A DNA stretch of 64,000 bases from Alphaproteobacteria bacterium (lineage in GTDB: Bacteria > Pseudomonadota > Alphaproteobacteria > SHVV01), in assembly GCA_965261735.1 (NCBI GenBank), contig OZ253470.1, positions 192,001 to 256,000 of the forward strand, given 5' to 3'. The notes beneath the pieces were generated by a model. It saw only the letters and a program-made list of their open reading frames with translations. It was not told the DNA's origin and did no database searches. How positions within the stretch are numbered: position 1 is the first letter of the stretch; each line of letters begins with the position of its first letter. Position numbers and translations under genes: made by a program. Positions 40,050 through 60,358 of this stretch are shown in pieces.

Positions 40050-41321
40050 ATGACGGACAGTGCGGCAAGTTCCGATGCTCTCGCGGTCGAATACCGGACG
40101 GTCGGCAGCCTCAAGCCCGATCCGCGTAATGCACGAACGCATCCCAAGCGGCAGCTCGAGCAAATCACGGCCTCGATCAAGGAGTTCGGCTTCACCAACC
40201 CGATCCTGATCGATGAACAGAGCGCCATCATCGCGGGGCACGGACGGCTGCACGCCGCAAAAGAGGCGGGTCTCGCGGAGGTTCCGACCATTGTGCTCGC
40301 AGGACTGACCGATGGTCAGAAGCGCGCACTGAGACTGGCCGACAACAAGATCGCGCTCAGTGCGAACTGGGATCTCGATCTCCTGAAGCTGGAGTTGGGC
40401 GATCTCGCCGGCATGAACTTCGATCTCGGCCTCACGGGTTTCTCGGTGGGGGAGATCGATATCGCCCTTTCGGGTGCGGACGAACCGGACGACGATCATC
40501 TCCCGGAGATAAAACCGTCGCCGCGAACCCGACCGGATGACATCTGGATCCTCGGCGACCATCGCCTTGGCTGCGGGGACGGTCGCGACCGCACGTTCCT
40601 GCGGCGTGTCATCGGGAAAGGCGTGAAGATCGACGCTGCCTTTCTCGATCCACCTTACAATGTCGCGATCGGCGGGCACGCCAACACGCGTGGCCGCCAC
40701 CGCGAATTCGCGATGGCCTCCGGCGAGATGAGCCGGGATGAGTTCCGCACGTTCCTCACAGACGCTTTGGGGGCGTGCGTCGCCGCATCCCGTGACGGCG
40801 CCGTTCACTTCGTTTGCATGGATTGGCGCCATATGGATGACCTTTCCGCCATCGGCCGGGACGTCTACGGCGACCTGCTCAATCTGTGCATCTGGAACAA
40901 GTCCAATGCCGGGATGGGCTCGCTCTACCGCTCAAAGCATGAACTGATCTTCGTCTACCGGGTTGGCCAGGCACCACACTTCAATGCGGTCGAGCTTGGC
41001 AAGCACGGCCGCAATCGCACCAACGTCTGGGACTACGCTTCCGTCAACACCGTGGCCGGAAGCCGGCGCGAAGATCTCAAACTCCATCCGACGGTCAAGC
41101 CGACAGCACTTGTCGCCGATGCGATCCAGGATGTGACCAGGCGCGGCGATCTCGTCTTGGATGTCTTCTCTGGATCAGGCACCACACTCGTCGCATCGGA
41201 GCGAACCGGTCGGCGTTTCCGCGGCGTGGAGATCGATCCGGCTTATGTGGACGTGGCGATCGATCGGTGGGAGGCCATGACCGGCGGGAAGGCCAAGCTC
41301 AGCAGGAAGGCCCAGGCATGA
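40050..41321 (+). CDS. ParB-N-terminal domain fused to beta-class N4/N6 DNA methyltransferase
   Basis: FGFTNPILID..IIAGHGRL (ParB); DPPYN precedes HPTVKP and DVFSGSGTT. Confidence 0.92.
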   Translation: MTDSAASSDALAVEYRTVGSLKPDPRNARTHPKRQLEQITASIKEFGFTNPILIDEQSAIIAGHGRLHAAKEAGLAEVPTIVLAGLTDGQKRALRLADNKIALSANWDLDLLKLELGDLAGMNFDLGLTGFSVGEIDIALSGADEPDDDHLPEIKPSPRTRPDDIWILGDHRLGCGDGRDRTFLRRVIGKGVKIDAAFLDPPYNVAIGGHANTRGRHREFAMASGEMSRDEFRTFLTDALGACVAASRDGAVHFVCMDWRHMDDLSAIGRDVYGDLLNLCIWNKSNAGMGSLYRSKHELIFVYRVGQAPHFNAVELGKHGRNRTNVWDYASVNTVAGSRREDLKLHPTVKPTALVADAIQDVTRRGDLVLDVFSGSGTTLVASERTGRRFRGVEIDPAYVDVAIDRWEAMTGGKAKLSRKAQA

Positions 41322-42799: not shown

Positions 42800-43081
42800 G
42801 ATCTGGCCACGATGGAGATCGTCGGCTGGTCGATGTCCGAGCGGCTGAAGAGCGTCCTGTGCGAGGATGCGCTGAAGATGGCGACCCGCAGCCGCCGGTT
42901 GCCCATGGGGCTGATCCACCATTCCGACCGCCGTCTGCGTACCGTCATAGCAACCTCCTATGCCAGAGTGTTGCGACGACCGATTGAACCCGCCCAATAT
43001 GCCTGCGGTGACTACCGCAAGCTGCTCCGCCTCCATGGCATCAAGGCCTCCATGAGCCGCAAGGGGAATTGCCTCGACAAC
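42800..43081 (+). pseudogene. IS3-family transposase integrase-core fragment
   Basis: DLATMEIVGWSM..LIHHSDR...QYACGDY..SMSRKGNCLDN. Confidence 0.8.
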
Positions 43082-43688
43082 GTAAGCCTCCGGGGTGAGC
43101 CGCCTTCTCGGATTAGTGTAATCAGGCGAGGTTGTGCGATCGGGAGTGGACACCTGTTTGGTGTCCACCAAGGTCTAAGTGGACACGATCGCAGATGTCG
43201 GAAGCAGTGGAGAATCCGAAGTCCGGGCGGGAAGGCCCGGGTGCGCTTCGTCGTCTCTGGTGCGATGCCGAGAAGCGCCGGATCGTAGCGGAAAGCTACC
43301 AGTCCGGGGTTTCTGTGTCGGTTGTGGCGCGGCGCAACGACGTGAACGCCAACCTGGTGTTCAACTGGCGGCGCCGGTTTCGCGAGCAGGCTGGCGGGGT
43401 CGGCGGCTTGGTGCCGGTGGTTGTGGAGCCGCCGCCGTTGGGTGCTGCTGCGGGGGATGCGCCGGCGGCGGGACGGATGGAGATCGCGCTGGCCGATGGC
43501 TCGCGGGTGATCGTCGACCGGGAGGTGGACGGTTCGGCGCTGGCGCGGGTGCTGGCGGTTCTGGCGCGCCGATGATCCCGGTTCCGGGAGGTGTTCGTGT
43601 CTGGCTGGCGAGTGGCGTGACCGACATGCGGCGCGGCATGAACACCCTGGCGCTTCAGGTCCAGGAGGATCTCGGGCGCGACCCGCAC
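43082..43688 (+). mobile_element. IS66 left part (tnpA 43195-43575, truncated tnpB from 43572)
   Basis: GTAAGCCTCC end; [24 protein letters not shown]; [10 protein letters not shown]. Confidence 0.88.
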
Positions 43689-43745: not shown

Positions 43746-46697
43746 TTAACCGTCCGGAAACGGATCCCCGTGTTCCACGTCGTCTGTCCAATAATTAAAT
43801 CTTGCCCGCAGAAAATCATCTATGGCCTCGAAATCGGGCGTTTGTTGGTGACATTCAAGTCTCAATGTTCTTAGTGTTGCGACTTGTGAAAGCTTCAGAG
43901 CCCGTCGCATAGATTCCTCAGTGTACTCTGACATTGGCGCTGGCGTCGTATTTTCACTTTCTTGGCGACCCATAGCATCACTCACACTTTCCTTCAATTT
44001 CTGCAATGCATCGCTCACTGGCGTTTCAAGCTGGGAGGCTCGATAATTCCACGTGATATTTGCTATCGCAACCAGCATATGCCAATCTAGCCATCCTTCA
44101 CGTCTCAAGTTTCTCACGATATCGAGAAACGCTGCGCATGCCGACAACCTCGCCAACGTAAATTTAATGGACGCACTAACGTTTTGGTAACGATTTCGTA
44201 TGTGCTCTGCCGAAGAGCTTTTGCTGTATCCAGGACCAGGCCCTTCAAACCAAGCCATACTTTTGTGTTCTGTTACTCGAAACGACATCGGTGCCTGTGG
44301 TATCGTCCAATTAAAACGCTCTTCATCAAATGGTCGAGAATCCGAGATACAATTCCTATAGAGATCTTCATATGGTCTTGCTATTTGGATTTTGGATACG
44401 ACGCCTTTCTTCAACGAATGTGACATCAATTCAAAAAATTCTGAATCAGAGAGAAGAGACACTTCTCGAATAATAGCCGTTACGAATCCGAAAGCTTCCT
44501 TTTGCACTTCATCCAATTCAACATTTTCCCTTTGCATTGAGAAATGGATTATCCAGAGTCGCCGTTTGTTTGATGTCTTGCTCTCAATTTTTGAATTCGT
44601 CTTACTCCGTGCTCTCACTTCGACCCTGATCTGAGATCGAAGAATACAGAGGTCTAGTCCGGCCCATTCCGCCATCAAAACCTGGGCCGTCGACATGAAT
44701 TGCTCCGCGACTGCTGTAGCCGAGTACGTATTGTCCCATGAAACGGTCCACGTTAGACCCAACTGCTTCCAGATAACCGTTCTTGTTGCCCCGACATCAC
44801 CAAACGGTTTACCTAAAAATTGACTCTGAAGATTATCCCAGACTGCAGCATTGCTCTTCTTAGACCAGACTTTGCGAGCTGCCGTGAAAGCTTCGTCAAC
44901 CATGTCGGCAAAGGGCCAATCCGCTACCAGCTCTTGCATCCGCGGTACCATGGTCGGTGTGAATCGTTCAGCTACCAATAGGGCGATCCCGGCGTGATAG
45001 CTTATCTCCTCCATTTGGGAGTCTATGGTCTCTGGGTTCTGCTCTTGATTTGGCACCAGGTGGTAAGCGAGCATTGCTGTATGCGCCAATCCTAGGAAAT
45101 CGCACCAGCAACCCTGTGCATATTCACATCTTGCAACCAGCATAAATGCCGGAGGAGCGTGACGCTTTAACTCTTTCTTGGTGGTTTGCATAGAGATGTA
45201 CGCAGCTGCCATCGCGTACTGCTTAGCCGCATACGTAAGACCCAGTTCTAGGTACCACATAGAAAGCATCATCATGGTCAGGATAGAGCCGCCGAGGGTT
45301 TCGTCAGCAAACCACGCTATCTTCGCTCGATGTAGTTCAGTGATAGCTTTTAAAATCTGGTCTCTCTCGCGCAACGCCATGCTACGGTCGCGACACTTTT
45401 CAGCAGCTTTGAAGCCACCGTACCGTTCAGCCAGAAGATCGTCCAACCTATTTGTGATATCTTCAAGTTGAGAAGCATCGCCAAGCAATCGGATAATCTC
45501 GGTCACCCTGTCCGCGAAACGCTCCAATGGGTAAAGAGGCGCGTCAACAACCAGGTCGAGCATTTCTGACCACAGACTCGTGGTCTCGTTCAAGTCCGGA
45601 TACGATGCACCGTGCATAGCCCCCTGGAACACAATAAGATTATACCCGAGTGATTCCAGATACATACATTTGTTAGTAGGTGACTGCGTAACGAAAATCT
45701 GTTCCCTCAGACGCCTCTGAATGGAAATTCCTACGACCCTAATTTCGGCAAGAGTAAGCTGAACCGCATTTTGTTGGTAGGCACCGCAGCAGTATAGAAT
45801 CAGCACGCCGGCGTCTTCGAGATCTGCAGCAATCTCCAATTGGTCGATACGCGAGAAATAGCGACGGAGGTCTTGCTCCAATCCTTCCATAGATCCGAGA
45901 CCCTGAAGGGAAGCGACAGCAATCTCATATGTCGCGCGCCAATACAATTTCTCCGGACATCCTTCATCTTCCTGAAAAGCACGCAAGCAGGATATCCAAA
46001 GTGGCAGGTCACTTTTAGCGCGGTCTGCAAACGTTGCATGTCGAACTGCAGATACCAATTCATCAAAGTTTGCCGGGTTTCTTAGAAAATCATCGCAATG
46101 TGTCCATCGTTTGACCGCAGAGTTATACCAACTGTCACCTTCTTCGGCGTCAAGGTGCGGACGAAATTCGCGCGGAATTGAAAGGAAATGTTCAGCTATC
46201 CAAAATATCTCGACGTCACATAATAGCTCTGACAAAGCCTGTGAATCGTACAATTCAAGATGTACGTGATGATGCGTGTGTGCCCATGCTTGTAACTCGT
46301 GTCTACGACCAGTGGATATGTCACAAGCAAAAAACATGTGTATGGAGGCAACACATTGACCAGGTTCCATTATGAGTTTGATGTCTTTTTTTATCTTTCT
46401 GGCAATATTGTCCTTTTGCAGTGAGCAACCGAATACGACTAGGCCTTCAGATGCCGAACCAACGAATGAAGGACAAGTTAGAGGGGATTTGTGGATATAC
46501 GTACGAAATGTCTCAAAATCACGACCTTGATCTCCACCTGCCGACACCGGTCCGGTGGCAGGAAGAATGTTGCTACATATTCGAAGCCGCGCGAAATGCC
46601 TACACATGTGCTCAAATTCGTGATGAGCATTGCGTGCCGACAATTGCCCCTCGATGGCGAAGCGTATTTGTGCGATGACTTGAGGTACGGTGGCCAA
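43746..46697 (-). CDS. large AT-rich protein: N-terminal Mrr/PD-(D/E)xK-like domain plus TPR-like helical region; candidate defence protein
   Basis: HHEFEHMC...[15 protein letters not shown]...FGCSLQK; GGAG RBS before TTG 46697; visibly lower GC than the host. Confidence 0.7.
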
Positions 46698-47039
46698 GGT
46701 CACACTCCATGAAGAAAGCAATGCTGTAGGTGTGCAAGCGCTGAGCAAATGTGGCGAGGCTAAACTCTGGGAAAGGCATTGGCTAGTTGCATCTCGTAGA
46801 CTTACCAGAGGCATTTCTCGTTCTGCCGCCCTTGGAGCGCGTTCCCATCGCCCTGAGCGAATGCGGAGACCGACGATTTGGAAACACAGACCGAAAGTCG
46901 AATAGTGCAATATATCGACTCCTTTCAATAGGAAAAATTGGCATATCTGACTGTGGGAGGCACGGGCGCTCATCGACTGGATTATTGGTGGGAGGGTGAA
47001 CATTATTCACTCCATTGACGCAGCGCAGGTAACGAAGTG

Positions 47040-48060
47040 TCGTGTGTGGACGCCCCCGGTGACGCAACATTTTCTTCGGTCGGCTCGGCGCATGAGGTAA
47101 GGCACAGTCGTATGTGCCGCGGGCCCTCATGGAGATGCGAGGACCGGGTCCATATCGCTTACGCGAGCTTGATGGCTCTGCGTTGCGAAGCTGGTTCTCC
47201 CGATCCCGTCTCGATCGACCGTTTGCCCTTGCCTTTCCTCAGACCTGCCCGCGTCCCCGACAGCTACCCACCCGGCTGCCCTGTCAGGCGGCGGCGGGAG
47301 CCCGATAACTTTCCTTTTTCTTCATCAGCGCCCAAACAATGCGCGCCATCCGGTTGGTCAGTGCCACGGCGACCAGCATGCGCAGGCGTGCGCATCAGCA
47401 TCCTGGCGAGCCATGGGTCGTTCGTCCGGCCGCGCCGAGCCGCCCAGCGGACGACCGCGATGGCGCCCGTGATCAAGAGCCGCCTCAGATCGCGCTGGCC
47501 CATCTTCGATATTCGGCCAAGCTGCGGCTTGCCGCCGGTCGTGTGCTGGCGCGGCACCAAGCCGAGCCAGGCGGCAAAGTCCCGGTCGCGCCGGAAGGTC
47601 TCCATCGGCGGCGCGAAGGCCTGAACCGCCATCGCGGTGATCGGGCCGATCCAGGCACGGTCATCAGACGACGCACCTCTTCGTCCTGCCGGGCGGCCGC
47701 CAGTATTTCCTCTTCGAGACTATCGATCTTCGTGCCGAGCCCGGCGATCTGCTCCAGCAGAAGGCCGGTTATTTCGCGGACCGTTTCCGGGAAATCCAGG
47801 TCCGGATCGTCAAGCGCCGACACCAAACGCCCGACATGAACCGCACCGTGGGGCGCAACGACGCCGAACTCCGCCAGATGGCCGCGCAGCGCGTTGATCG
47901 TCTGGGTCCCCTGGCGCACCAGGAGATCGCGCGTGCGGAACAGCATGCCCCGAGCCTGCTGCTTGGCGGTCTTCACTGCCACAAAGGTCATGGTCGGGCG
48001 CGACGCTGCCTTGCAGATCGCCTCCGCGTCCGCTGCATCATTCTTTTGCCGCTTGTTGTT
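47040..48060 (-). mobile_element. IS110-family (IS1111-like) remnant: 5'-truncated, frameshifted transposase plus 3' non-coding end
   Basis: QKNDAADAEAIC, RGHLAEFG, FAAWLGLVP..TGGK..GRISKMG; ~220-nt non-coding end with TGTGGACGCCCC. Confidence 0.85.
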
Positions 48061-48337
48061 CGGCTGGTGGACTGGACGCAGATCGGCTTGGAAACGTATT
48101 GATCTGTTTTGCCTTTGCGGGGTCCAGAAAGGAGTCCGAGTAACATTCTTCCAAGGTCGCACGAATGCGCGCGATCTTGCCCCGCGGGTCGCTTCTGGTA
48201 GGCTGCCCGCACCGGGAACCCTCTATGTCCTTTCAAACGCCATCGTACACTCGCCGTTCCTCACCGCCGCAGTCGCGAAGCGAGCCGCAGACCACATCAC
48301 GCGGGCAACCGGCGCAACGCGACCGCGGCCGTTGACC

Positions 48338-51300
48338 GTGCCGACAGATGCCGGAGCGGTTGGCGACCCCCGGCCGGTGCTGCACGACTGGGATCGGGCG
48401 AAGACCCGGATCCTCGCGTCCAACACGGCCCAGGGTGTGCACAAGCACCTTCGGACCCTGGAGTCCAACCGCTCGCGCGTCCTTCCGCGCTGGATCTGGG
48501 AACTCCTCCAGAACGCCCGAGACGTTTCGGACGGAAACGCGAGCCTAGTCGCCTCGGTAGAGGTGCGCGACGGCGAGCTGACCTTCTGCCACAACGGGCG
48601 CGGATTCGAACCCGACGAGATCACGCACCTCGTCTACTACGGCTCGACGAAACTCGAGCGCGACGACGCGGTCGGCCAATTCGGCAGCGGATTCCTGACC
48701 ACGCACCTGCTGTCCCTCACCATCGAGGTGTCCGGGCAACTGACGGACGGCCGAGCGTTCGCTTTCCGGCTCGACCGGGGCGGCGACTCCGTGGCCGACC
48801 TGCAGCGCCGCATGGACGCCTCGTTCGAGGCCTTCAAGTCCTCGCTGGCGCCTGCGGGCGACCGCAGCGTTCCGGGAGCCACCACCACGTTTCGGTACCT
48901 GATCGATGAGCGCGCTTCGGAGGCTGTGCAGAAGGGTGTGCGGGCCTTGGCGCTAATCGGGCCCTACGTGACCGCTGTCAACCAGGAGTTCAAGCGCATC
49001 CAGATCAAGACGGCGAATTCCGGAATCGTTCTCGAGCTGAGGAAACGGCGCGTCCTCGCCGAATACATCGAGGAAGTGGAAGTCGATGTGTCAGCGCACG
49101 ACAGCGCACCGGGGGAGCGCCGTAGCCACGTCGTCGCCGAATTCGATGGAGTAGCCGTGGCGATCCCCTTCGAGCGCCGGGGCGAGGACGTGGCCCTGGT
49201 GTCGCCGACAAGTGCGCCTAAGCTGCTGTTGGGATTCCCTCTGATCGGGACGGAGGACTTCAGCTTCCCCGCGGTTGTTCACAGCCTGCGGTTCTCGCCC
49301 ACCGAGGAGCGGGACGGGGTCTATCTCGGACAGAGCGACGATCAGGTCAATTGCGAGAATCAGGCAGTCCTCGAGCAGGCCTGCCGGCTGCTTCTTTCGA
49401 TCGCCGGGTTCGCGGCGAAGTCGGGCTGGTCGCGCACCTACTTGCTCGCCGAAGTACCGCCCGTCCAGGCGCACAGGTGGCTGAACGAGGCTTGGCTGCG
49501 CAATTGCCTCAAGACGCATCTGGTCGATCCGATACGCGCCACGCCGTCGGTTCTGACAGAGTCTGGTGGCGCCGTCGCGCCGAAAGCCTCCACCCTGCCG
49601 ACGGCCGACTCACCGGAGGCGGTGGACCGGTTGTGGTCGCTGGCCCGCGCCCTGACGGCCCTGAAGGACACACTCCCTAGACAGGCGGAGGCTCAGGGCT
49701 GGTCTAGGGCGGCCCGGAAATGGGCGGCCCTGTACGCTTGCCCTATCGACAAACTCGAAGAAACGATGGACGGGCGCGATCTCGTTGGCCACGCCGAGTC
49801 CGCTGGATCGATCGAGACGCTGCAGGCCCAGCTCGAGGACGGCGACGTGACGAGTTGGCTGGACGAACTGCACGGCTTCCTATCGGCTAACGGCTTCGAC
49901 GACGCGCTGCGAGGTCGAAAAATCGTCCCGGATCAGAACGGTCGGTTCAGCACGCTCTCGAATCTGCATCGTGACCGGGACATCCCCGGTGAGTTGAAGG
50001 AAATCGCGCAACTCGTCGGCTGGGATCTCCGTGCGGAGCTGCGGGACACGCGCTTCTGTACGCTCGCCGACGAACCTGGAGCGGGAGACGTCGATGGCGA
50101 CTTCGTCATCCTGAAACTGATCGACTGCCTACGCGAATGCATGGAGAAGCCGCTCGACGACGATACCAAGGTCGCCAACGTGCGGCTCTTCGGCTGGCTA
50201 GCCGTGCACGGTCAATGGCGTCACCTCGAAGGATTCCCCGCGTTCTCGGATGAGGGCGCCTCGAGCACTACCATAAAGCTGGTCCGACACGAGGACGACG
50301 GCTCCGAGCGGCCCCTCGCGCCCGTGCGGACATGGCCGGAGCCACTTCGGCAATACGCGGACCTGTTCCCCCGACGCCGCATAATGGCTGACGACTTCGC
50401 CGACGGACTTGACAATCCCTCGGCGTGGTCCGCGCTCGACCAGCGCAGCTTCCTCCGCACGAGTGTCCTGTACACCCGAGCGTTACCATTCGACGAGTTT
50501 TTTCCGGATGAACCCCTGCCCGAAGGGGACGAGGGCAAAGTCGATCACAAGGTAGACGGCACCGTCGAGGTCACGGACGTCGCCTTCCTGTCAATGAGAG
50601 ACATCGGGGTCCTATCCAGGGTCCGCCAGAGCCGAGTTCAGGCACAGCTCTTCTGGGACTTTCTCACTCGATGGCTTGCAGTTGAGGACGCCCAGGGACT
50701 AGAGGCCCAGGAGTCGATGTGTGTATGCGGATCGCCTCACCGCTACTATCCGGCAGCATGGCTCGTCCCCGTCGCACGTAACCAATGGGTTCCGCTGGAG
50801 GGCCGGCGCACCGATCGGGCCAGGGCACACTCCCTCGCGAACCTCGTCCGCCACAGCGAATGGCCGGCGGATCTCCTGCGAAAGAGTCCGCAGGTCGTCG
50901 CCCTCCTGAAGGCGCTCCGGGTCGGCGTGCCCGAACTCATCATGGAGCTCTTCACGACGGACAACGAGGAGCGGGAGGCCCTGGACGAGATGCTCGCGCA
51001 GCTACTGACGTCCGTTGGCAGCGACTGGGGTCGTTTGCAGGTGCTCGCCGACGACATACAGGAGGATAGGGAACTCTTCGACCACCTCGAAGAACGCCGG
51101 CAGCGCCGTCGCATGGTGCGCGAGAATCAGAGACTAGGTGCGCTCGTCGAGGAGCTGGTCAGGGAGAGTCTGGAGGGCGAGGGCTTCGATGTCCGCCGTA
51201 CTGGCGTCGGCTCGGACTTCGCCATACAGCCCCGCCCGACTGCGGAAGACGAACAAATCCGGCTCGAATTGACCCGGCGCGGCCGGACTTGGCTCGTCGA

Positions 51301-51688
51301 GATCAAGTCCGCTCGTGACGACAGCGTGAGGATGACGTCCGTCCAGGCGCGAACTTCCGTCGAACACGACTCCGACTACCTGCTTTGCGTTGTGCCGATC
51401 ATCCCTGGACCAGAGGATCCGGACATCGAGGCCGTTCGCCGATGCATGCGCTTCGTCGACGGAGTCGGCGCGCGCCTCGCAGGCATCTGTGCCGATCTGA
51501 ACAACTTCGAGAGCTTCCGCGACAGCGTCACCGTCGAAGATGCGGCGGGATTCCGCCTCGAGCTGGATTCGGGCTCGCCGCGCATCCGCATCGGCAGCAC
51601 GGTGTGGGAGGCCGGATTCGGACTTGAGAACCTCTTCTCCCGACTTACCGCGACGGACGGCGGTCGCGACGGTGCCGCCGGACATTAG
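48338..51688 (+). CDS. sacsin/NOV-like GHKL ATPase fused to C-terminal DUF3883-like nuclease; candidate defence protein
   Basis: WELLQNARD, HNGRGF, STK, GQFGSGF, F.PTEERDG; C-terminal GALVE..TGVGSDF..VEIKS; start approximate. Confidence 0.8.
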   Translation: MPTDAGAVGDPRPVLHDWDRAKTRILASNTAQGVHKHLRTLESNRSRVLPRWIWELLQNARDVSDGNASLVASVEVRDGELTFCHNGRGFEPDEITHLVYYGSTKLERDDAVGQFGSGFLTTHLLSLTIEVSGQLTDGRAFAFRLDRGGDSVADLQRRMDASFEAFKSSLAPAGDRSVPGATTTFRYLIDERASEAVQKGVRALALIGPYVTAVNQEFKRIQIKTANSGIVLELRKRRVLAEYIEEVEVDVSAHDSAPGERRSHVVAEFDGVAVAIPFERRGEDVALVSPTSAPKLLLGFPLIGTEDFSFPAVVHSLRFSPTEERDGVYLGQSDDQVNCENQAVLEQACRLLLSIAGFAAKSGWSRTYLLAEVPPVQAHRWLNEAWLRNCLKTHLVDPIRATPSVLTESGGAVAPKASTLPTADSPEAVDRLWSLARALTALKDTLPRQAEAQGWSRAARKWAALYACPIDKLEETMDGRDLVGHAESAGSIETLQAQLEDGDVTSWLDELHGFLSANGFDDALRGRKIVPDQNGRFSTLSNLHRDRDIPGELKEIAQLVGWDLRAELRDTRFCTLADEPGAGDVDGDFVILKLIDCLRECMEKPLDDDTKVANVRLFGWLAVHGQWRHLEGFPAFSDEGASSTTIKLVRHEDDGSERPLAPVRTWPEPLRQYADLFPRRRIMADDFADGLDNPSAWSALDQRSFLRTSVLYTRALPFDEFFPDEPLPEGDEGKVDHKVDGTVEVTDVAFLSMRDIGVLSRVRQSRVQAQLFWDFLTRWLAVEDAQGLEAQESMCVCGSPHRYYPAAWLVPVARNQWVPLEGRRTDRARAHSLANLVRHSEWPADLLRKSPQVVALLKALRVGVPELIMELFTTDNEEREALDEMLAQLLTSVGSDWGRLQVLADDIQEDRELFDHLEERRQRRRMVRENQRLGALVEELVRESLEGEGFDVRRTGVGSDFAIQPRPTAEDEQIRLELTRRGRTWLVEIKSARDDSVRMTSVQARTSVEHDSDYLLCVVPIIPGPEDPDIEAVRRCMRFVDGVGARLAGICADLNNFESFRDSVTVEDAAGFRLELDSGSPRIRIGSTVWEAGFGLENLFSRLTATDGGRDGAAGH

Positions 51689-51769
51689 GCCAGCCGTGCG
51701 GACCAGCGTCGCGATGGCGGTGCCGACCCAAATGCCCCCTGGTTGCCGGTCATGGGTGCGCGGGGGGGG

Positions 51770-51821
51770 GTCAACGGCAACCGAAAATCGCACAGTTTTG
51801 ATAATCGAAAATAGCACAGTT
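51770..51821. mobile_element. isolated IS21-like end
   Basis: GTCAACGGCAA followed by two CGAAAAT(c/a)GCACAGTT repeats (51782, 51806). Confidence 0.5.
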
Positions 51822-52058
51822 CGAGCGCGGGGTCGTGCCCCTAGGACGCGGTGTTGGGGTGTGGGATTCGGTGGAGCTGTGGGTAACCGGGTTGGCGCAG
51901 CGACCGCCACGAGTCTGGCGGCGCCCGCAGGTCTCGCGGAACAGCAGGACCGGCATGTCGTCCGGTGACGGCGTCCCGAACTCGATCCACGGATATTCCG
52001 TGAGGTCGGCAATGGTGGGCGGTGCCGTCGGGCAGCGGATGACCGGCATGGGTGCACA

Positions 52059-53426
52059 GTAAGCATCCGCCGAAGACCGCGGGGTATTTCGGGCTGAGTT
52101 TGGCGGCGGGGTGATGCCGGTGAGGAGCGCCAGGCGGGGCCTTGGCCTATGCAGCCCGATCGTGCCGCCGGTTGTCTTGCCAGTTCCACGGAAGGAGTTC
52201 GTCGAGCTGGCTCTGCGGCGTCCCGGCGATCTTGCCGAGGACATCGGCGAGCCAGGCCTGCGGATCGACATTGTTGAGCTTGGCGGTGCCGATGAGGGTG
52301 TACATCGCCGCCGCCCGCACGCCGCCGCGGTCGGAGCCGCAGAACAGCCACGACTTTCTGCCCAAAGCAATCCCTCTGAGCGCGCGCTCGGCGGCGTTGT
52401 TGGTCAGGCAGATGCGGCCGTCGTCGAGGAAGCGGGCGAAGCGGTCCCAGCGCCTGAGCATGTAGTCCATCGCCTTGGCCACGGGGGAATGGCGCGACAG
52501 CTTCTTGCGCTCGGCCTGCATCCAGCCCTTGAGATCGGCCAGCACCGGCGCGCTCAGCTCCTGGCGTGCGGCGAGGCGCTGCTCGGTGGGCTTGCCGTTG
52601 ATCCCGCGCTCGATGTCGAACAGCACATCGATCCGCTTCACCGCCTCCAGCGCCACGGGCGAGATCGGCGGCGCGTTCTTGCCGCGTCGCTTGCTGGCTG
52701 ATCGATACCGCGCCCCCCGACGTCGTCGGCCACAGGAACCGGCCGCGCTCAAGTCGCTTGGCGTAGAGCGAGATCCCCAGACCGTCATGCCAGAGGATTT
52801 TTACCAGGTCGCCTCGACGGCCGCGGAAAATATACAGATCCCCCGCATGGGGATCGTGCCCGAGATCCTCCTGGACCTGAAGCGCCAGCGTGTTCATGCC
52901 GTGCCGCATGTCGGTCACGCCGGTCGCCAGCGAACCGAAAGCACCCGGGCCAGCGCCGAACCGTCCACCTCCCGGTCGACGATCACCCGCGAGCCATCGG
53001 CCAGCGCGATCTCCATCCGTCCCGCCGCGGGAGCGGCACCCGCGGCAGCGTCCGCCAGGGGCGGCGGCGTCCCGGAAGGCTCGACAACCACCGGCACCAA
53101 GCCACCGGCCCCGCCAGCCTGCTCGCGAAACTGACGCCGCCAGGTGAACACCAGGTTGGCGTTCACGTCGTTGCGCCGCGCCACAACCGACACAGAAACC
53201 CCGGGCTGGTAGCTCTCCGCTACAATCCGACGCTTCTCGGCATCGCTCCAGCGACGACGAGGAGCAACCGCGCCTGCCCGCCCGGGCCCCAGATTCTCCA
53301 ATGCTTCCGACATCTGCGATCGTGTCCACTTGGACCTTGGTGGACACCTCCATGGTGTCCACTTCCGATCGCATAACCTCGCCCGATCACACTAATCCGA
53401 GAAGGCGGCCCACGCCGGAGGCTTAC
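52059..53426 (-). mobile_element. internally deleted IS66 (tnpA, partial tnpB, tnpC C-terminus)
   Basis: GTAAGC ends at 53426 and 52059; TNNAAERALRGIALGRKSWLFCGS; TAKLNNVDPQAWL..LLPWNW. Confidence 0.9.
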
Positions 53427-53428
53427 GT

Positions 53429-53700
53429 TCAACATAACTCGATGTCGGTCTGCCTGGTGCTCGCGAAATACTGCCGGGTATAGGGTCCGTAGATTTGCAC
53501 GCCCATCGACGCAACGATGCCCCTCTCTACCGACTGCGGATAAGGATAGTCCCGGCGGACGTACGGGGTGCAGCGGTACTCCGGGGCGACGGTAAAGCCG
53601 CGCCAGATGTCGCCGAGGGTCTGGGCCCCAGCGCTTCCCCATGGAAGAATGATCGTGAAGCCTGCGTTATCTGCAAGGATAAAGGTGACGGCTAGGCTCT
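53429..53700 (-). pseudogene. fragment of a secreted HNH-type nuclease family protein
   Basis: Frame absent from ORF track: IWRGFTVAPEYRCTPYVRRDYPYPQSVE..IYGPYT..FASTRQTDIE, ending beside the IS66 end; family call from recall. Confidence 0.55.
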
Positions 53701-53825
53701 TCTACCACCGCTTGGTATTTCGGCACGTAATCGTCGTTGTCTCATACGTCCAGCGATCGCGCTCCCCGGGGAGGCCGGCTGCGCAGCAGGGTGCCGCGGC
53801 CGGACCGGTATCGGCTGAACGGGTT

Positions 53826-54719
53826 TCAACCGTGTCGTCTTTTGCTGGTAGCGCCGGCTCGCACCATCTCGGAATCCACCCGCACCATGTGCGCGATGGT
53901 ATCCCTTAGCGCCAGTAGCTCTCGAATAACCCCGCACACATGCCGCGCCTGGTCGCGCGTCGCCGCATATTCGTTGGCATGAGCAAGATCGTCTCGAAGC
54001 GTCTGTATTTCTTCTAGTTTCTCTCGGAAGTTACCCTTGCTATGTTCGCTCTTCGGAAGTTGAAAACCTTTCAGAAGAATTTCCAATTTGTCGCAAAATT
54101 GCGTGAACAGCAGGGCATCAACGAAGCCGTCACCTCGACGTGACCCCTCTATCTCTTTGTTGATCTTCTTCTTGCGGTTGTCACTAAGACTGCGCTTCCA
54201 CTCATCATCGTTTGGATACTCCCTCTTAATTACCTCGAACATGGAGATTTCGAACCCGGTTATCAGTGCGAAGAGGGCCGCCCTGACAGGCAGTTTCTGA
54301 AGGTCCGATAGGCTGACCAAACCGACAATATTGGCCCCGGAGATAACAAGCCGGCAGGGCTTTTTGTCGGCCTCGACGACAAACTCCAGAATGCTGGCGT
54401 CAGCCCCCATTAGATGTTCTTCAGAGAGCGGCACATAGTGCTGCTCAATGTGCCCCTCAACCGACACCTCATCGCAAAACTGCACAGCGTCAAACAGACC
54501 GATGATGCGGTCCTGCTGCCGGTCACCGGGAGCTACGACAGGGAGGAAATCATACGGCTCCGTGTTCCGCGCCATGACGACGGGCAAAGCTTCATGCAGT
54601 GCGCATGTCATGAGCTGGGGTCGTTTCGTCGAAATGAGTTCGACCGTCAGCCCCGCGTGCAGCGCGTGGAAAACATCGACGGCTCCCGCATTGTCATGAT
54701 TGGTCCATTTCTCGGTCAT
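53826..54719 (-). CDS. CBS-pair domain fused to Swt1-like HEPN RNase
   Basis: YDFLPVV..IIGL and LVISGANIVGLVSLSDL (CBS); FTQFCDK..IL and LRDDLAH (R-x4-H). Confidence 0.75.
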   Translation of the reverse strand: MTEKWTNHDNAGAVDVFHALHAGLTVELISTKRPQLMTCALHEALPVVMARNTEPYDFLPVVAPGDRQQDRIIGLFDAVQFCDEVSVEGHIEQHYVPLSEEHLMGADASILEFVVEADKKPCRLVISGANIVGLVSLSDLQKLPVRAALFALITGFEISMFEVIKREYPNDDEWKRSLSDNRKKKINKEIEGSRRGDGFVDALLFTQFCDKLEILLKGFQLPKSEHSKGNFREKLEEIQTLRDDLAHANEYAATRDQARHVCGVIRELLALRDTIAHMVRVDSEMVRAGATSKRRHG

Positions 54720-54755
54720 GTCCGCGCCTCCTTGCTGTCAGCCGCGGTTGAATAG

Positions 54756-55895
54756 TGGCCTGCCCCCGATTAGTGGTCCAGCGCTTAAGTTAGAGTTTGG
54801 CGCGGGTTAAGTTGATGGGCCGACCGTAGCCCCTCAACAGCGTAGGTTGGCCCCTCAACGGCCCGGGTCACCTTGGGAGAACGGATACAACGAGAGCTTC
54901 AACTCAAAGCTCCGGAACGAAATCCTGAACACGGAGATCTTCTCTACACTGAAGGAGGCCAAAGTGCTGATCGAACGATGGCGGCATCACTATAATACCA
55001 TCCGGCCGCATAGCTCGCTCGGATACAGACCGCCGACCCCAGAAACCATCTTGCCAAACGAGCTCGATATAGAGGGTCTTGACGCCGATCCTGCCGAGCC
55101 AGTCGCGGACGGCATGAGCGGTAAACTCTGAGCCGTTGTCGGAACGGATATGATCCGGCGGGCCATGTTGGACGAAGAGCTCGGTCAGACAATGGAGTAC
55201 ATTGTCCGAGTTCAATCTTCGCTCGACGACAACGGCCATGCACCGCCTGGTGAACTCATCGATCACGGTGAGCATGCGGAACTTCCTCCCATCGTGTGTT
55301 CGATCCATGACGAAGTCATAGGACCAGACGTGATTGGGCCAGCACGACCGCAGACGGATGCAGGATCCGTCGTTGAGCCACAGCCTGCCCCGTTTCGGTT
55401 GCTTCTGTGGGACCTTCAGCCCCTCCCGCCGCCAGATGCGCTGGACCCGCTTGGCGTTCACGTGCCAACCTTCGGTCCTGAGCAAGGCAGTGATCCGCCG
55501 ATAGCCATATCTGCCATACTGGCTGGCCAAGCGGATGATCGCGGCCGTGAGTGCCTCTTCATCATCCCGACCACGGGGTCTCTTGCGCTGGGTTGAGCGA
55601 TGTTGGCCTGCAACAGCACAGGCACGTCGCTCGGAGATTCCCAGTTCGGCCTGGAGATGATCAACACACTGCCGGTGACGGGCGGGGCTTAGCAATTTCC
55701 CTCAAGCGCCTCTTTCAAGATCAGCTTATCCAACGTCAGATCCGAGATCGCCTTCCGGAGACGGCCATTCTCCTTCTCCAGGTCCTTCAGACGCTTGGCC
55801 TGGTCAGTACGAAGGCCGCCATATTCCTTGCGCCAGCGATAGTAACTCTGCTCCGATACGCCGAGCGTGCGGCAAGCTTGACCAACGGACTGGCC
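54756..55895 (-). mobile_element. IS3-family (IS407-like) element, left end lost, with internal inversion
   Basis: End TGGCCTGCCCCC; orfA YYRWRKEYGG..LEKENGRL; GGGAAAT slippery site 55701-55695; orfB YGYRRI, WSYDF, RSDNGSEF. Confidence 0.9.
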
Positions 55896-56515
55896 CGGCG
55901 AGGATGTGCGAGCCCAGGTTGGGGATGGTGATCCAGGGCAGGATCAGGAACCTCGGATTGTCGGCGACGAGCGGGAGGTTCTTCTCGCGTGCATGGGCAT
56001 CAATCCGGATGCCGCTGATAATCCGTGGTTGCGGGAGGCGATGAAGCCGCTGGTGAGGGACGACTACGACAGGAAGCTGCCTGTCGAGGTCCTGCGCTCG
56101 GGCGACCGGGTCGAACTGCCGGCCGTCCTGACGTTCGGGTCGGGCGTCGTGTTCAAGGTGAAATGGCGGTGGCGTGAGGAGAACGGCGAGCAGAGGGAGC
56201 GAACAAATCGGAAATGGCTGGTCGTCTGGCCGCGCGGATGGGATTAAGCAAGGCCGAGGGGAAGGATGCGGTGGACAGCGTGTTCGCGGCGATCGGCGAG
56301 GCGCTTGCGCAGGAGGAGGATGTGACCGGATTGAGCCAGGCTGACCCAACGCCGGCCCGGAGCGCCCTGCCACCTGGCGCAACATTGGCCATCTGCCGCA
56401 GAGCCCGCCGCGAATCGAACGGGTGATCGAGCCGGAGAGCCGGGACTGCCCGTGCGGCTGCGGGAGATGGTGCGGGTCGGCGAAGACCGGAGCGAGAGCC
56501 TGGACATCGTTCCCA
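55895..56515. pseudogene. mosaic of fragments: DUF4338-like, HU-like, IS66 TnpC zinc finger
   Basis: (-) NLPLVADNPRFLILPWI.IPNLGSHIL; (+) LAARMGLSKAEGKDAVDSVFAAIGEAL; (+) VIEPESRDCPCGCG/EMVRVGEDRSESLDIVP. Confidence 0.6.
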
Positions 56516-56587
56516 GTACTTCGTCCTTCCGAAACTCTGAAAGCGAAGCTACCCTTCGTGCACGATGGGCAGGGCGGAGCTGAAAGA

Positions 56588-59500
56588 ATGATTGAGGGAG
56601 CCCGGCAGCTTTCGCGCCAGCATGTAACGGTTCGAGTGCCGTGGCACGATTCCGGGTGGACGGGCAGGGTCTGCGCAGCGCCATCGGCCAACACGTCCTG
56701 CATGGCGCTGTCGCGCATCGCCAAGAACAAGAGAGCCGACGAGGACTCCTTCCGAGATCGAGACTTCGAAGACCTGGGGGCATCCGAACTCCCGCCATGC
56801 GTCGAGGAGCGAGTGGGCTTCCTCTCCGAACACGACTTTATCTTGAAAAAGCAGCATCCTTACAAGGTTGCCAGCCCTGAGACACACGGACATTTCGGCG
56901 AGACGACGCTCCGATTAGAGGCGTATTCGGCTGCTTGCATTCCATTCGGGTGGATGTTGCGACGTCACGTTGAAGGCGACGAGCGCGCGGGAATGGTAGG
57001 CAAAGCGGACGCGCTAAGACTCGGCTACGATACCGCCCGCGAACCCAAGCTGCCATTCGATACGAGTTGGATACAGGACAAGCGCAACCAACTCGTCATG
57101 CTCGACACATTCTTCGCCGCCCTTGAACCGAAAGGTTCGCTGTGCGTGTTCTACGCCAAGCGGACGCCACTCGCAGAAGACAACCGCCGCGTCATCATCG
57201 GGGTGGGACGGGTCAAGAGTGTGGGCCACATGACCGAATACACCTATGACGCGCCAGGGCCGCTTGAGGGCGTGTTGTGGGAGCGTTGTGTCCGTCACTC
57301 GCTCCGGCTCAAAGGCAATTCAGATGGCTTCCTGATGCCGTACCATGCTCTCCTGGCTGCGGCAGAGGCTGATCCGACTCTAGACCTTGCCGGCAGCGTC
57401 GCGTTCGCGCCGGACGACCAGTTCGACGCGTATTCTTACGCGTCCGAGCATCTGGGCGATGACGCGGCGATTGCCTCGCTGCTGTCGTGTGCGGTCGCCC
57501 TTCGGGCAGCGGCCGAGCACATCGATGTCGAGATCGAGTCGGCGCTGAAATGGATCGACGCCGAGATCGCCCGGTTATGGACGGCACGTGGCGTCTATCC
57601 GGGGCTGGGAAGCGCACTTTCCGCCTTTGGGCTCGATCATGGCGGTCTTCTTGCGCACGAGATTGTCCGCGCCGGTGCCGAGGACGGCAAGGTGTTCGAC
57701 GCGTTCGCCTTCATCGACGCCTTTGTCGCCGATCCAAAGCGGTTCCCACAAGGCGAGCATCTGGGCTTTGGAGCGAGTTTTCGCGAAAAGTGGAGCGGGC
57801 TTCCTCCCGAACGACGTAGGCTGCTGGAACTAGTTGGGCGTTGCAATCTTAAGGCCGACCAAGCGCTCCGTGTCTATCAGCCGAGTATAAGGAGCTTCGC
57901 CCCTTCGACCAGCGACGCTGACGTCCTCGCGAACCCCTACCTGATGTTCGAGTGCGACGAAGCGGCGGCCGAGCGGATCGGCTTTGCAGTGGTCGATCGC
58001 GGCGTGTTCCCGGGCGATGCGGTGCGTGAGGCGGCGCCTTTGGCCTCGCCGACGGAGATGACCGATGCGATCGACAAGCGGCGCGTGCGAGCGCTGATGA
58101 TCGATCTTCTCGAACGCGCGGTCACCGAGGCGGGGCACACGCTATTGCCGCGAAGCTGGATGGTGCAGCGCGCGCTGGCCACACCGCTGGAGCCCAAGTG
58201 CACGATCGACGAGGACGTGATCGCGATCAACAGCGCTTGGCTCACGGAGGGGCTCGCCGAAGCAAAGACCGGGAGCGGCGAACCAGCGTACAAGCTGCAG
58301 CGTTACGCGACTGCCCGCAAAATGATCGGCTCGGCGATCTATAAACGTGTCAGTGCGAAGCAACACGAGCTAAATCACGACTGGCGCAAGCTCGTCGACA
58401 AGGAACTCGGGCCGCTACCGACGGAAACCGACGACCGCAAGGAAGAAGACCGCGCTCGGCACGAGAAGGTGGCCTCGCTCAAGCAGTTGGCGAGATTTCG
58501 GTTTTCGGTGCTTGTCGGACCTGCCGGTTCGGGCAAGACGACGCTGCTGAAAATCCTGTGCAACCTGCCTCAGGTCCGTGAGAGAAAGGTCCTGTTGCTG
58601 GCACCGACGGGGAAGGCGCGGGTCAGGCTGGAGGAAGCCACGGAACGCGTGGGCGAAGGCAAGACGCTCGCCCAGTTCCTACAACGTTTGGATCGCTATG
58701 ACGGTGCTAGCGGGCGCTATTATTGGAACCCCGCCGCCCCGCGTGAGAAGGCGTACCGGACGGTCATCGTCGATGAATGTTCGATGCTGACCGAAGATCA
58801 GCTCGGCGCTCTTCTTGACGCAATTGAAGGCGTGGAGCGCCTCGTCCTCGTCGGCGATCCGCGTCAGTTGCCACCGATCGGTGCGGGCCGCCCGTTCGTC
58901 GACATCTGTCACAAGCTCGCCCCGCCCGAGCAGCCGCCGATCTTTCCGCGTCTCGCCGACGGCTACGCCGAGCTAACGGTGATCGGCCGCCAACGCGGCA
59001 GTGGGCGCGGCGACGTGCTGCTCGCGCGACAATTCAGCGGCGAACCGCTCGATGCTGGTGGCGACGAAGTCTGGGATGCGCTGAACGCAGGCACGCTCGA
59101 CCACGTTCGCTCAGTCCGCTGGGCCGGACCAAGTGCTGTCGAAGGGACGCTGACCACCGAGCTTGTCTCTGGGCTCAAGCTCGTGGGCGGCGACGATGAG
59201 GCGGGGTTCGAGCTGAGCCTCGGCGGAAGCACCTACGAAGGCAATGTCTATTTCTGGTCGGCACGCGAAGTCGGCGGCGACGGCGGAGCTGCGTCGCGTT
59301 CGCATGCCTGGCAGATTCTGTCGCCGATCCGCGCTGGCCTTGCCGGTGTCGACGGGTTGAACCTCGCGGTCCAGCGACGCTTCCGAGTCAAGGCCAAGGC
59401 GCGGGCCGAGGCGACACGTTGGGCGAAGATCCCAAAACCGGCCGGCCCGCAAGGCCTGTTATGGGGTGACAAGGTAATTAACGTCCGCAACAACGGCCGA

Positions 59501-60358
59501 CGACGCACCTACCCGACCCAGGAGAACGCCTATGTCGCGAACGGTGACATAGGCATCATCGTCGGCGGCTTCAAGACGAAGAATATGAAGCGCCGACCAC
59601 GCAATCTCGAAGTTGAGTTCAACAGTCAACGAGGCGTCAAGTTCACTTATCCGTATTGGGAGTTCACCGGCGACGACGGCTCACCCGAACTTGAGCTGGC
59701 CTACGTACTGACCGTTCACAAGACGCAGGGCAGCCAATTCGACCAGATCTTCCTAGTCGTGCCCAAGCATTGTCGACCGCTGACGCGTGAGTTGCTTTAC
59801 ACAGCGCTGACGCGCCATCGTGACCGGCTTGTGATCCTCCACGAGGACGAGATTGGCGCGCTGCGCCGCTACGCCGAACCCGCGGCGTCCGAGATCGCAC
59901 GTCGGATGACCGACCTTTTCGAGGAGCCCACACCGATCGAGGTGGTGACGGACACCGGGCCGAAGTTCCTCGACCAGCATCTCCTACACCGGACGAGCCG
60001 CAACGAACTCGTGCGGTCGAAGGCCGAGCTGGCGATCGCTGAGAAGCTGATCGCGATGGGCGTGCCCTATGTCTACGAGCAACCGCTCATGCTTGGTGGG
60101 CGGACACGGTGGCCGGATTTCACCATTGAAGACGATGAGAGCGGCATCACCTACTACTGGGAGCATCTCGGGCTCCTGTCCGATCCCGCGTATGCGGAGC
60201 GGTGGGCAACTAAGCGGCAGGCTTATCTCGCGGATGGAATCTGCCCTGTCGACCAAGCGGCGGGCGCTGATCGCGTGCTGATCGAGACGCAGGAAACCGA
60301 AGGTTCGGGACTCAACATGCTGGAAGTGGAACGCCTGGCCAGGATTGTCCTCGACTGA
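56588..60358 (+). CDS. RecD-like SF1B helicase with Cys/His-rich N-terminal domain and C-terminal PD-(D/E)xK-like nuclease
   Basis: GPAGSGKT, LLAPTGKA, DECSM, VGDPRQLPPIG, TVHKTQGS, LYTALTR; C-terminal RSKAE..YEQPL..PDFTI..WEHLG; ATG 56588. Confidence 0.88.
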   Translation: MIEGARQLSRQHVTVRVPWHDSGWTGRVCAAPSANTSCMALSRIAKNKRADEDSFRDRDFEDLGASELPPCVEERVGFLSEHDFILKKQHPYKVASPETHGHFGETTLRLEAYSAACIPFGWMLRRHVEGDERAGMVGKADALRLGYDTAREPKLPFDTSWIQDKRNQLVMLDTFFAALEPKGSLCVFYAKRTPLAEDNRRVIIGVGRVKSVGHMTEYTYDAPGPLEGVLWERCVRHSLRLKGNSDGFLMPYHALLAAAEADPTLDLAGSVAFAPDDQFDAYSYASEHLGDDAAIASLLSCAVALRAAAEHIDVEIESALKWIDAEIARLWTARGVYPGLGSALSAFGLDHGGLLAHEIVRAGAEDGKVFDAFAFIDAFVADPKRFPQGEHLGFGASFREKWSGLPPERRRLLELVGRCNLKADQALRVYQPSIRSFAPSTSDADVLANPYLMFECDEAAAERIGFAVVDRGVFPGDAVREAAPLASPTEMTDAIDKRRVRALMIDLLERAVTEAGHTLLPRSWMVQRALATPLEPKCTIDEDVIAINSAWLTEGLAEAKTGSGEPAYKLQRYATARKMIGSAIYKRVSAKQHELNHDWRKLVDKELGPLPTETDDRKEEDRARHEKVASLKQLARFRFSVLVGPAGSGKTTLLKILCNLPQVRERKVLLLAPTGKARVRLEEATERVGEGKTLAQFLQRLDRYDGASGRYYWNPAAPREKAYRTVIVDECSMLTEDQLGALLDAIEGVERLVLVGDPRQLPPIGAGRPFVDICHKLAPPEQPPIFPRLADGYAELTVIGRQRGSGRGDVLLARQFSGEPLDAGGDEVWDALNAGTLDHVRSVRWAGPSAVEGTLTTELVSGLKLVGGDDEAGFELSLGGSTYEGNVYFWSAREVGGDGGAASRSHAWQILSPIRAGLAGVDGLNLAVQRRFRVKAKARAEATRWAKIPKPAGPQGLLWGDKVINVRNNGRRRTYPTQENAYVANGDIGIIVGGFKTKNMKRRPRNLEVEFNSQRGVKFTYPYWEFTGDDGSPELELAYVLTVHKTQGSQFDQIFLVVPKHCRPLTRELLYTALTRHRDRLVILHEDEIGALRRYAEPAASEIARRMTDLFEEPTPIEVVTDTGPKFLDQHLLHRTSRNELVRSKAELAIAEKLIAMGVPYVYEQPLMLGGRTRWPDFTIEDDESGITYYWEHLGLLSDPAYAERWATKRQAYLADGICPVDQAAGADRVLIETQETEGSGLNMLEVERLARIVLD

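Follow-up and report, generated by a model that had tools for sequence, protein, structure and literature searches.

A probable defence island at a tRNA-Gln gene of an alphaproteobacterium contains four putative single-gene cassettes, one from an unnamed protein family

Tiamat (TmtA) is a named and validated single-gene anti-phage system. According to a 2026 preprint, the purified B. cereus protein is active in ATP hydrolysis, in nicking of duplex DNA and in cleavage of single-stranded DNA; the preprint also reports a helicase next to roughly 14% of curated Tiamats and predicts a Tiamat/NERD-helicase complex for type I-G. The DefensePredictor paper (PMC13092281, Science 2026) validates DS-11, a one-protein CBS+HEPN system from E. 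coli that protects this species; its defence is lost on mutation of CBS residue Y157 to alanine (Y157A) or of the HEPN catalytic residues, with R330A listed in the strain table, and HHpred places HEPN_Swt1 at residues 252-359. CBS-HEPN fusions were already noted as likely nucleotide-gated RNases in a 2013 HEPN survey (PMC3710099). Here we compare these and related systems with a locus in an alphaproteobacterial genome (contig OZ253470.1), where a 64,000-nt window, the whole stretch of DNA analysed, contains four long open reading frames (ORF1 to ORF4) among remnants of insertion sequences (IS) to the right of a tRNA-Gln gene.

We think it likely that the stretch is a defence island within an integrative element at tRNA-Gln, and that its four genes are single-gene cassettes which were acquired independently and assembled piecemeal via IS activity; of the four, only ORF1 is potentially new. 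The region that we examined as island cargo, from ~42.7 kb rightwards, is a mosaic of IS fragments and the four long frames, and would represent the variable cargo of the element, built stepwise by IS activity. ORF1 (43746..46697, minus strand) encodes 983 aa from a TTG start, its open frame continuing to 47003; ORF2 (48338..51688, plus strand) encodes 1116 aa from a GTG start, with the frame open from 47894; ORF3 (53826..54719, minus strand) encodes 297 aa; and ORF4 (56588..60358, plus strand) encodes 1256 aa from an ATG start, with the frame open from 56423. The original prediction, made from the letters of the DNA and a list of its reading frames, had described these as four uninterrupted genes among broken transposase genes. 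All four are indeed where it placed them and full length when compared with relatives or profiles, and the transposase genes between them cover their Pfam models in part only (rve 31-102/102, for example), the IS110 pieces lying in different frames. Since the IS genes match only parts of Pfam models and the four frames are open and full length, the prediction was right to see intact genes in the midst of IS debris. The claim of a defence-type island at a tRNA also stands: the tRNA-Gln (CTG) gene (36914..36987, plus strand; called by ARAGORN, Rfam tRNA 66.1 bits) is a likely integration hotspot and the left edge of the island, a large serine recombinase that is taken as the island integrase is encoded close by (37401..39137, minus strand; Pfam Resolvase 2.4e-39, Recombinase 4.1e-16), and the four genes have defence-type architectures. 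The statement that the set matched no named system fails, as a PADLOC search returned Tiamat for ORF2 and PDC-S68 for ORF4, and ORF3 has the architecture of DS-11; only ORF1 is nameless. Every activity of the four proteins in this organism is one that we infer.

By family assignment ORF2 is Tiamat. It matches the PADLOC TmtA profile PDLC03967 at E 6.5e-166 (552.5 bits), with ORF residues 167-1252 aligned to profile positions 9-1057/1063, and is laid out as an N-terminal GHL/GHKL ATPase, a large central region and a putative C-terminal PD-(D/E)xK-type nuclease. The GHKL assignment made in the original prediction is confirmed by the NCBIfam model of the sacsin ATP-binding domain (GHL/GHKL; 60.6 bits against a cut-off of 50), and HATPase_c matches at E 0.0017, below its Pfam cut-off. 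The sequence contains ELLQNARD and GQFGSGF, which we take to be Bergerat motifs. The second half of that assignment, DUF3883, is found below threshold only: NOV_C (PF13020, the former DUF3883) reaches 16.9 bits (E 0.0069), short of its cut-off of 22.1, with GSDF...VEIK present in the sequence. Plasmid-borne Bacillus forms of Tiamat are only distantly related to ORF2, sharing 22-27% identity across roughly half of the protein. Should ORF2 act as its B. cereus homolog does, it would couple an ATPase to nicking of duplex DNA and cleavage of single strands.

ORF4 aligns with PADLOC profile PDC-S68 (PDLC05065) over positions 5-1216/1221 at 1485.1 bits, and on this sequence match it is assigned to PDC-S68, a catalogued single-gene defence candidate. 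The proposed SF1B helicase is confirmed by Pfam, NCBIfam and PDB comparisons: a core at ~625-1090 of the 1256 aa matches Pfam AAA_30 (3.7e-27), UvrD_C_2 (2.9e-12) and SH3_13, the NCBIfam RecD2 model TIGR01448 matches at 4.3e-58, below its equivalog cut-off, and the PDB RecD2 structure 3e1s at 1.6e-25. The proposed PD-(D/E)xK nuclease has an invariant motif as its basis. Alignment of ORF4 with three plasmid relatives reveals a Cys-rich N-terminal block and an invariant C-terminal block, ...PDF.I.DD....YYWEH.G..., and neither the N-terminal region nor the last 182 aa matches any Pfam family at E<=10; because the C-terminal segment has no family match, the nuclease label is a motif reading. ORF4 would thus be a 5'-3' helicase of RecD2 type that has an additional region at its N-terminus and, probably, a restriction-endonuclease-like domain at its C-terminus. 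The N-terminal block conserved among PDC-S68 relatives reads RVPWHD..W.G.VC...N..C and is encoded at window positions 56588-56800. In a small sample of three PDC-S68 plasmid neighbourhoods, all three contain defence-type genes and no partner is common to them, the relatives lying respectively near a NACHT protein, near DISARM, and near a DEAD helicase with WYL and Cas6.

ORF3 has a CBS pair at ~20-142 followed by a HEPN domain at ~143-290 with an R242-x4-H247 motif. Searched alone, the protein gives sub-threshold Pfam matches to CBS (E 0.028) and HEPN_RiboL-PSP (E 0.14), and the CBS+HEPN assignment of the original prediction is borne out at the level of the family. At least 816 homologs were found at E<=1e-3 among 6276 scored candidates, with relatives of ~272-297 aa; when 60 family members were searched singly against Pfam, CBS was matched by 45, HEPN_RiboL-PSP by 23, HEPN_Swt1 by 22 and HEPN_Apea by 4. 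Across the alignment of these 60, R242, H247 and N249 (RDDLAHANEY block) are invariant, as are D57 and P60, with Y56 at least 90% conserved. The AlphaFold2 (AF2) model has a pLDDT of 88, and in Foldseek its N-terminal half resembles the CBS pairs of CorC/CNNM transporters solved with ATP (E ~1e-4); an adenine nucleotide is the probable ligand of the ORF3 pair. A predicted homodimer complex with ATP scored 0.01 against a mark of 0.42 and is no evidence either way. The gene is preceded by a strong AAGGAGG ribosome-binding site. No tblastn match was found in the plasmid collection, which includes two E. coli chromosomes, nor any match in 50,697 phage records, and no paper was found that uses a CBS-HEPN or HEPN-CBS name. 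DS-11 and ORF3 are alike in being single proteins in which a CBS pair precedes a HEPN domain of Swt1/RiboL-PSP type bearing Rx4H, and differ in length, at 365 aa against 297 aa, with ~120 extra N-terminal residues in DS-11. By eye only, DS-11 Y157 (HDYSQLPV), R330 and H335 correspond to Y56 (EPYDFLPV), R242 and H247 of ORF3, and it is by architecture and these motifs that the two are likened. On the proposed mechanism, adenine nucleotide at the CBS pair would gate the HEPN RNase, leading to RNA cleavage of the abortive-infection type.

Whether these genes work together or merely share an address was addressed by looking at where their relatives occur. For ORF1, species-representative genomes were scanned with the family alignment, giving 283 stretches of which 228 encode relatives, and the best 80 were kept with up to 10 kb of flank each. 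That all four genes form one cooperative, unnamed multi-gene defence system would fit their lying within 17 kb and being intact amid broken IS genes, and we nevertheless regard it as scarcely credible: ORF2, ORF3 and ORF4 are each found in 0/80 of the ORF1-relative loci (tblastn E<=1e-5), none of nine annotated plasmid neighbourhoods (three each for ORF1, ORF2 and ORF4 relatives) contains a second member of the set, and two of the four genes match single-gene PADLOC profiles over their full length. The strands alternate (-, +, -, +), IS fragments occupy the 1.6-2.1 kb that separate one gene from the next, and the GC content of ORF1 to ORF4 is 0.478, 0.648, 0.544 and 0.625, against 0.675 for the backbone; because GC differs, the genes are taken to have separate origins. 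By hhalign no relation of the ORF1 family to ORF2 or to ORF4 was detected (probability <=0.1%). A narrower proposal, that the ORF4 helicase feeds single-stranded DNA to the Tiamat nuclease of ORF2, follows what has been proposed for Tiamat types with a helicase next to them; it has in its favour that the two genes share a strand, that by eye ~95 residues follow the ExK motif of ORF2, and that the preprint predicts the type I-G complex; since helicases neighbour ~14% of Tiamats, a Tiamat-helicase partnership is possible in principle. This point, and the standing of PDC-S68 as a catalogue candidate only, for which a full-text literature search found no paper using the name, weigh against our reading of four independent defence cassettes. 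The pairing is nonetheless very unlikely here. ORF2 and ORF4 lie 4.9 kb from each other, and the interval contains an IS66 remnant, ORF3 on the opposite strand and IS3 pieces; no plasmid record is common to the 7 that carry TmtA-like genes and the 24 that carry PDC-S68 relatives of full length; the other gene is absent from 3/3 TmtA-like and 3/3 PDC-S68 neighbourhoods; and the helicase of PDC-S68 is a RecD-like SF1B enzyme, its match to the NERD+UvrD profile being weak and local (E 4.9e-4). The suggestion that some of the genes act together, in particular ORF2 with ORF4, thus finds no support. The four genes might instead be recent passengers, unexpressed or non-functional, whose intactness reflects youth and not selection. 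The surrounding elements are decaying, and ORF1 in particular would be a very recent, unameliorated arrival, as its GC content and its GC content at third codon positions (GC3, 0.468, against 0.788 for ORF2 and ~0.8 for the host) are far from those of the host. Against this, all four are full length with respect to large families, ORF3 keeps its strong ribosome-binding site, and neutral decay over the same period has broken every IS gene examined; we consider the passenger explanation unlikely. Independent acquisition of single-gene defence cassettes remains the reading that we prefer.

ORF1 itself matches nothing in Pfam, NCBIfam, PADLOC or the PDB sequences, and PDB searches with ORF1 alone, with its family profile or with an N-terminal profile gave chance-level matches or none. 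It belongs to a large family: a word-index search found at least 1056 homologs at E<=1e-3 among 8000 scored candidates, nearly all of 970-1005 aa and sharing ~37-45% identity across the full length. Every name given to them by their sources is 'hypothetical'; the named sources include Methanobacterium, Bathyarchaeota, Chloroflexota, Bacteroidota and Pyrinomonadaceae, and the family extends over many bacterial phyla together with Methanosarcina and Bathyarchaeia. With relatives of ~975-985 aa, ORF1 is full length. Its AF2 model (pLDDT 85.5, pTM 0.82) begins with an alpha/beta domain (1-180), continues with helical repeats (184-626) and a beta domain (638-720), and is helical again towards the C-terminus. 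A Foldseek search returned only TPR/helical-repeat proteins (LGN, Ctr9, separase), and since these TPR matches dominate, the result is uninformative on the N-terminal domain. That domain is the most conserved part of the protein, with a mean column identity of 0.709 compared with 0.541 in the repeats and with 58 positions at 90% or above. E29, R33, a P-x-T-G-P-V-x-x-x-G-D-Q-x-x-D-F-E block, F89, C91, D105 and D151 are invariant and K101 is near-invariant; the ORF1 copy of the invariant motif is GGDQGRDFE, within which D56, D60 and E62 are invariant. An N-terminal profile retrieved 1321 representative clusters at E<=1e-3, and among the best 150 of these 94 are of 940-1035 aa, 54 shorter and 2 longer, a length spread from which the domain appears essentially tied to one architecture. 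The C-terminus (residues 821-983, DNA 43746-44237) is also strongly conserved, with GWLDWH and a terminal R..YW.DD..H...F block in which D972, D973 and H976 are invariant; this tail could be a second catalytic or metal-binding site. No paper was found describing an Mrr, restriction endonuclease or nuclease fusion to TPR by such names, the listed papers on Mrr-like nucleases being unrelated by title, and a keyword look-up in Table S8 of the DefensePredictor paper (PMC13092281) yielded no ORF1-like or ORF4-like entry.

The N-terminus of ORF1 is, judged from its sequence, most likely a restriction-endonuclease-like effector. With language-model features from the Atlas, the clusters nearest to residues 1-182 are of Mrr_cat type, scoring 0.91 and 0.90 on 164 and 158 shared features, and a whole-protein Atlas search found a related cluster with Cap4_nuclease in 26% of its members. 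The predicted order of secondary structure fits an alpha-beta-beta-beta-alpha-beta core, with the motif loop at pLDDT <50 and no structural match to a nuclease. Read by eye against the motifs of Mrr (PF04471), the domain resembles that enzyme in its layout: a helix bearing an invariant Glu is followed by a GGDxGxD-type loop, and the loop by a strand that ends in Q/E. A sister clade offers a further comparison, as there a Cap4 dsDNA-endonuclease domain replaces residues 1-187 on the same body: a 1249-aa relative on a Hymenobacter plasmid aligns to ORF1 residues 188-980 only and has a Cap4 domain (PF14130) at residues 20-168, which at 33.8 bits exceeds the cut-off of 26.2. Another Hymenobacter relative reaches 25.2 bits for Cap4 (same cut-off), and a Fibrella relative has no Cap4 match. 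Several results weigh against assigning a nuclease to ORF1. Pfam nuclease hidden Markov models (HMMs) match 0/49 members of the family; hhalign of the N-terminus with E. coli Mrr gives a probability of 0.15%; the PDB search with the N-terminal profile was empty; the invariant motif sits in a model loop (46-75) with pLDDT <50; and the lysine of the (Q/E)xK motif is not in conserved register, the nearest near-invariant lysine being K101. Residues 1-185 searched alone match no Pfam family at E<=10, and hhalign of the N-terminus with the Cap4-type Hymenobacter relative was not significant. The domain accordingly differs from both Mrr_cat and Cap4 in lacking an HMM match, in its non-significant hhalign comparisons and in its lysine register. 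Of the original description as helical repeats plus an Mrr-like nuclease, the helical repeats are confirmed by the AF2 model and Foldseek; 'Mrr-like' denotes a language-model lead and a motif.

To see the company that the family keeps, every second of the 47 ORF1-relative loci of at least 20 kb was taken, giving 24 loci, and the ORFs of 150 aa or more that lie no further than 6 kb from the relative were compared with PADLOC. Matches were found for 20/116 proteins at E<=1e-15 in 14 loci and for 6/88 proteins at E<=1e-25 in the other 10; as a rough yardstick, 2/34 of the other ORFs in our window match PADLOC at E<=1e-5, both to methyltransferase-type models. A full or substantial match to a known or candidate defence protein lies within 6 kb in 10/24 loci, as judged by coverage and with no matched control. 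These are a type I methyltransferase and specificity subunit upstream and a restriction endonuclease downstream, plus PDC-S27 (L004); a BrxHI/SngC-type helicase (L010); an Avs2 gene directly upstream, at 1762 bits and ending 52 bases before the ORF1 relative (L015); a type I restriction endonuclease and PDC-S31 (L024); a DUF262-type Orf5 and an HKD-Snf2 protein (L035); type I restriction-modification (R-M) genes (L051); PDC-S65, PDC-S28 and a type I restriction endonuclease (L058); a partial match to a type IIG-like enzyme (L060); NERD+UvrD (L068); and BovA (L071). Partial or unspecific matches only were seen in L013, L018, L021, L031, L038 and L048, and none in 8 loci. The Terriglobia locus L004 (5878-20276) holds the closest relative of ORF1 in the genome collection (56% identity), which lies inside the type I R-M locus (hsdM and hsdS upstream, hsdR downstream) with PDC-S27 between. 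When 1272 ORFs from the 80 loci were clustered, no conserved partner of ORF1 emerged; the commonest neighbour cluster is present in 6/80, four of the six being near-identical Caulobacteraceae loci, and HsdM-like and HsdR-like clusters are each present in 5/80. Relatives also occur in 11 plasmid records. One on a Blastomonas plasmid adjoins an ABC-three-component system, DUF2326, a reverse transcriptase and DUF4238, the Fibrella relative adjoins AbiEi/AbiEii, and other plasmid relatives lie among metal-resistance genes and HipA or among unrelated genes. On both Hymenobacter plasmids, the gene immediately upstream of the Cap4-type relative encodes a hypothetical protein of ~416 aa with no Pfam match (L001 5918-7168 and L092 3870-5120), and on the downstream side lies an HTH-HipA pair. 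In an Acidobacteria metagenome-assembled genome (L023 9842-16446) and in Planosporangium flavigriseum (L059 6712-13054), two ORF1-family paralogs stand in tandem on one strand.

With these data we propose tentatively, at somewhat below even confidence, that the ORF1 family is a new and widespread single-protein immune family of Bacteria and Archaea. Its members would be NTPase-less proteins of ~980 aa that join an effector to a TPR sensor, with an exchangeable N-terminal nuclease module, restriction-endonuclease-like here and Cap4-type in Bacteroidota plasmids, and with conserved beta and C-terminal domains, ending in an invariant YxYWTDDxEH-type tail, as an undescribed sensing or activation module. 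In such a protein the TPR-like and beta body would sense a phage cue, and the conserved N-terminal domain would cut DNA. The family could also serve a non-immune purpose, either by acting selfishly for mobile elements or in their maintenance, for instance as a nuclease for addiction or exclusion, or as a regulator built of TPRs. Such a role would accord with the 14/24 loci that have no clear defence neighbour, which count against an immune role, as well as with the plasmid relatives beside heavy-metal resistance and HipA genes and with the want of a nuclease HMM match. It accords poorly with the defence genes in the remaining loci, which include the R-M-embedded and Avs2-adjacent relatives, with the swap to Cap4 in the sister clade, which is typical of immune effectors, and with the lack of any ORF1 match in the phage records. 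We give a non-immune role an appreciable minority chance, and retain the immune family as our working proposal for ORF1.

The remaining features of the window concern the history of the element. Between the integrase and ~42.7 kb lie a fusion of ParB-N with an N6/N4 DNA methyltransferase (40050..41321, plus strand; Pfam N6_N4_Mtase 4.1e-31, ParB_N 6e-08; PADLOC MTase_II 8.2e-86), which is an orphan-like enzyme of mobile-element type, and after it two DUF5681 genes recognised by Pfam. A truncated IS66-family copy (43079..43687, plus strand), consisting of orfA and the start of orfB (Pfam HTH_Tnp_1; TnpB_IS66 2-43/101), precedes ORF1; frameshifted fragments of an IS110-family transposase (47264..48162, minus strand), in two different ORFs (Transposase_20 20-80/87; DEDD_Tnp_IS110 88-152/155), separate ORF1 from ORF2; a second truncated IS66-family copy (51771..53429, minus strand), which keeps orfA and orfB but, of the transposase, only the C-terminal half (DDE_Tnp_IS66 168-282/284, TnpB_IS66, HTH_Tnp_1), follows ORF2; and IS3-family fragments on both strands (54847..55695; rve_3 8-67/67 on plus, rve 4-94/102 and HTH_21 on minus) lie between ORF3 and ORF4. 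The IS66 remnants at 43079-43687 and 52848-53429 form inverted repeats (I1-I3), 89-92% complementary over pieces of 84-352 nt, the first copy providing the left arm and the second the right. These inward-facing arms flank ORF1, the IS110 fragments and ORF2, and the ~10-kb segment that they bracket looks like a composite transposon or an inversion-prone segment. The arms may have moved or inverted ORF1 and ORF2 together; such joint bracketing is a matter of transposition history and no functional link. A 746-aa ORF at 51134-53374 (minus strand) was rejected as a gene, being a high-GC read-through that contains only the IS66 TnpB piece and overlaps the end of ORF2.

Backbone GC is that of window bases 1-36000, and GC drops to 0.48-0.54 at 43-47 kb. 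To the right of the island, an ATPase-inhibitor zeta subunit gene (61307-61627) and umuC (62437-63696), both identified by Pfam, look like resident genes again. No att-like repeat of the tRNA-Gln end was found elsewhere in the window with 13-mers, and an Rfam scan of the whole window gave tRNA-Gln as its sole match. ARAGORN also reports an 89-nt 'tRNA-Asp' with the unusual anticodon ATC at 29306-29394 (minus strand), which Rfam does not recover at gathering score; it is most probably either a false call or the remnant of something tRNA-like. Just before tRNA-Gln, at 36174-36671 (minus strand), lies a piece of a Mutator-family transposase from its N-terminus (model 4-157/379), and since it precedes the tRNA, IS decay extends to the backbone side as well. 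A second dip in GC, at 24000-31000 (0.62-0.65 against ~0.69 around it), is located upstream of the island studied here and may be another acquired segment.

Taken as a whole, the locus is an ordinary defence island, and its worth lies in the genes that it assembles: a Tiamat of alphaproteobacterial type, a PDC-S68 in intact form, a short CBS-HEPN protein resembling DS-11, and a 983-aa protein from a nameless family. The last of these families is widespread and nuclease-like, often, though not always, adjoins R-M, Avs or other defence genes, and is a candidate worth testing as a single-gene defence. If ORF1 does protect against phage, it would represent a new NTPase-less effector-sensor architecture and a new nuclease-like immune effector domain. 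A further comparison is with Avs and other NLR-like proteins, which differ from ORF1 in having a central STAND NTPase between an N-terminal effector and a C-terminal TPR sensor: a STAND or P-loop NTPase is detected in 0/49 family members by Pfam at E<=1, and neither in the AF2 model nor among the Foldseek matches. In the order of the outer parts the two designs are alike, for ORF1 also places an effector-like domain at the N-terminus, ahead of long TPR-like repeats, and on the ORF1 side that effector is exchangeable, its place being taken by Cap4 in the sister clade.

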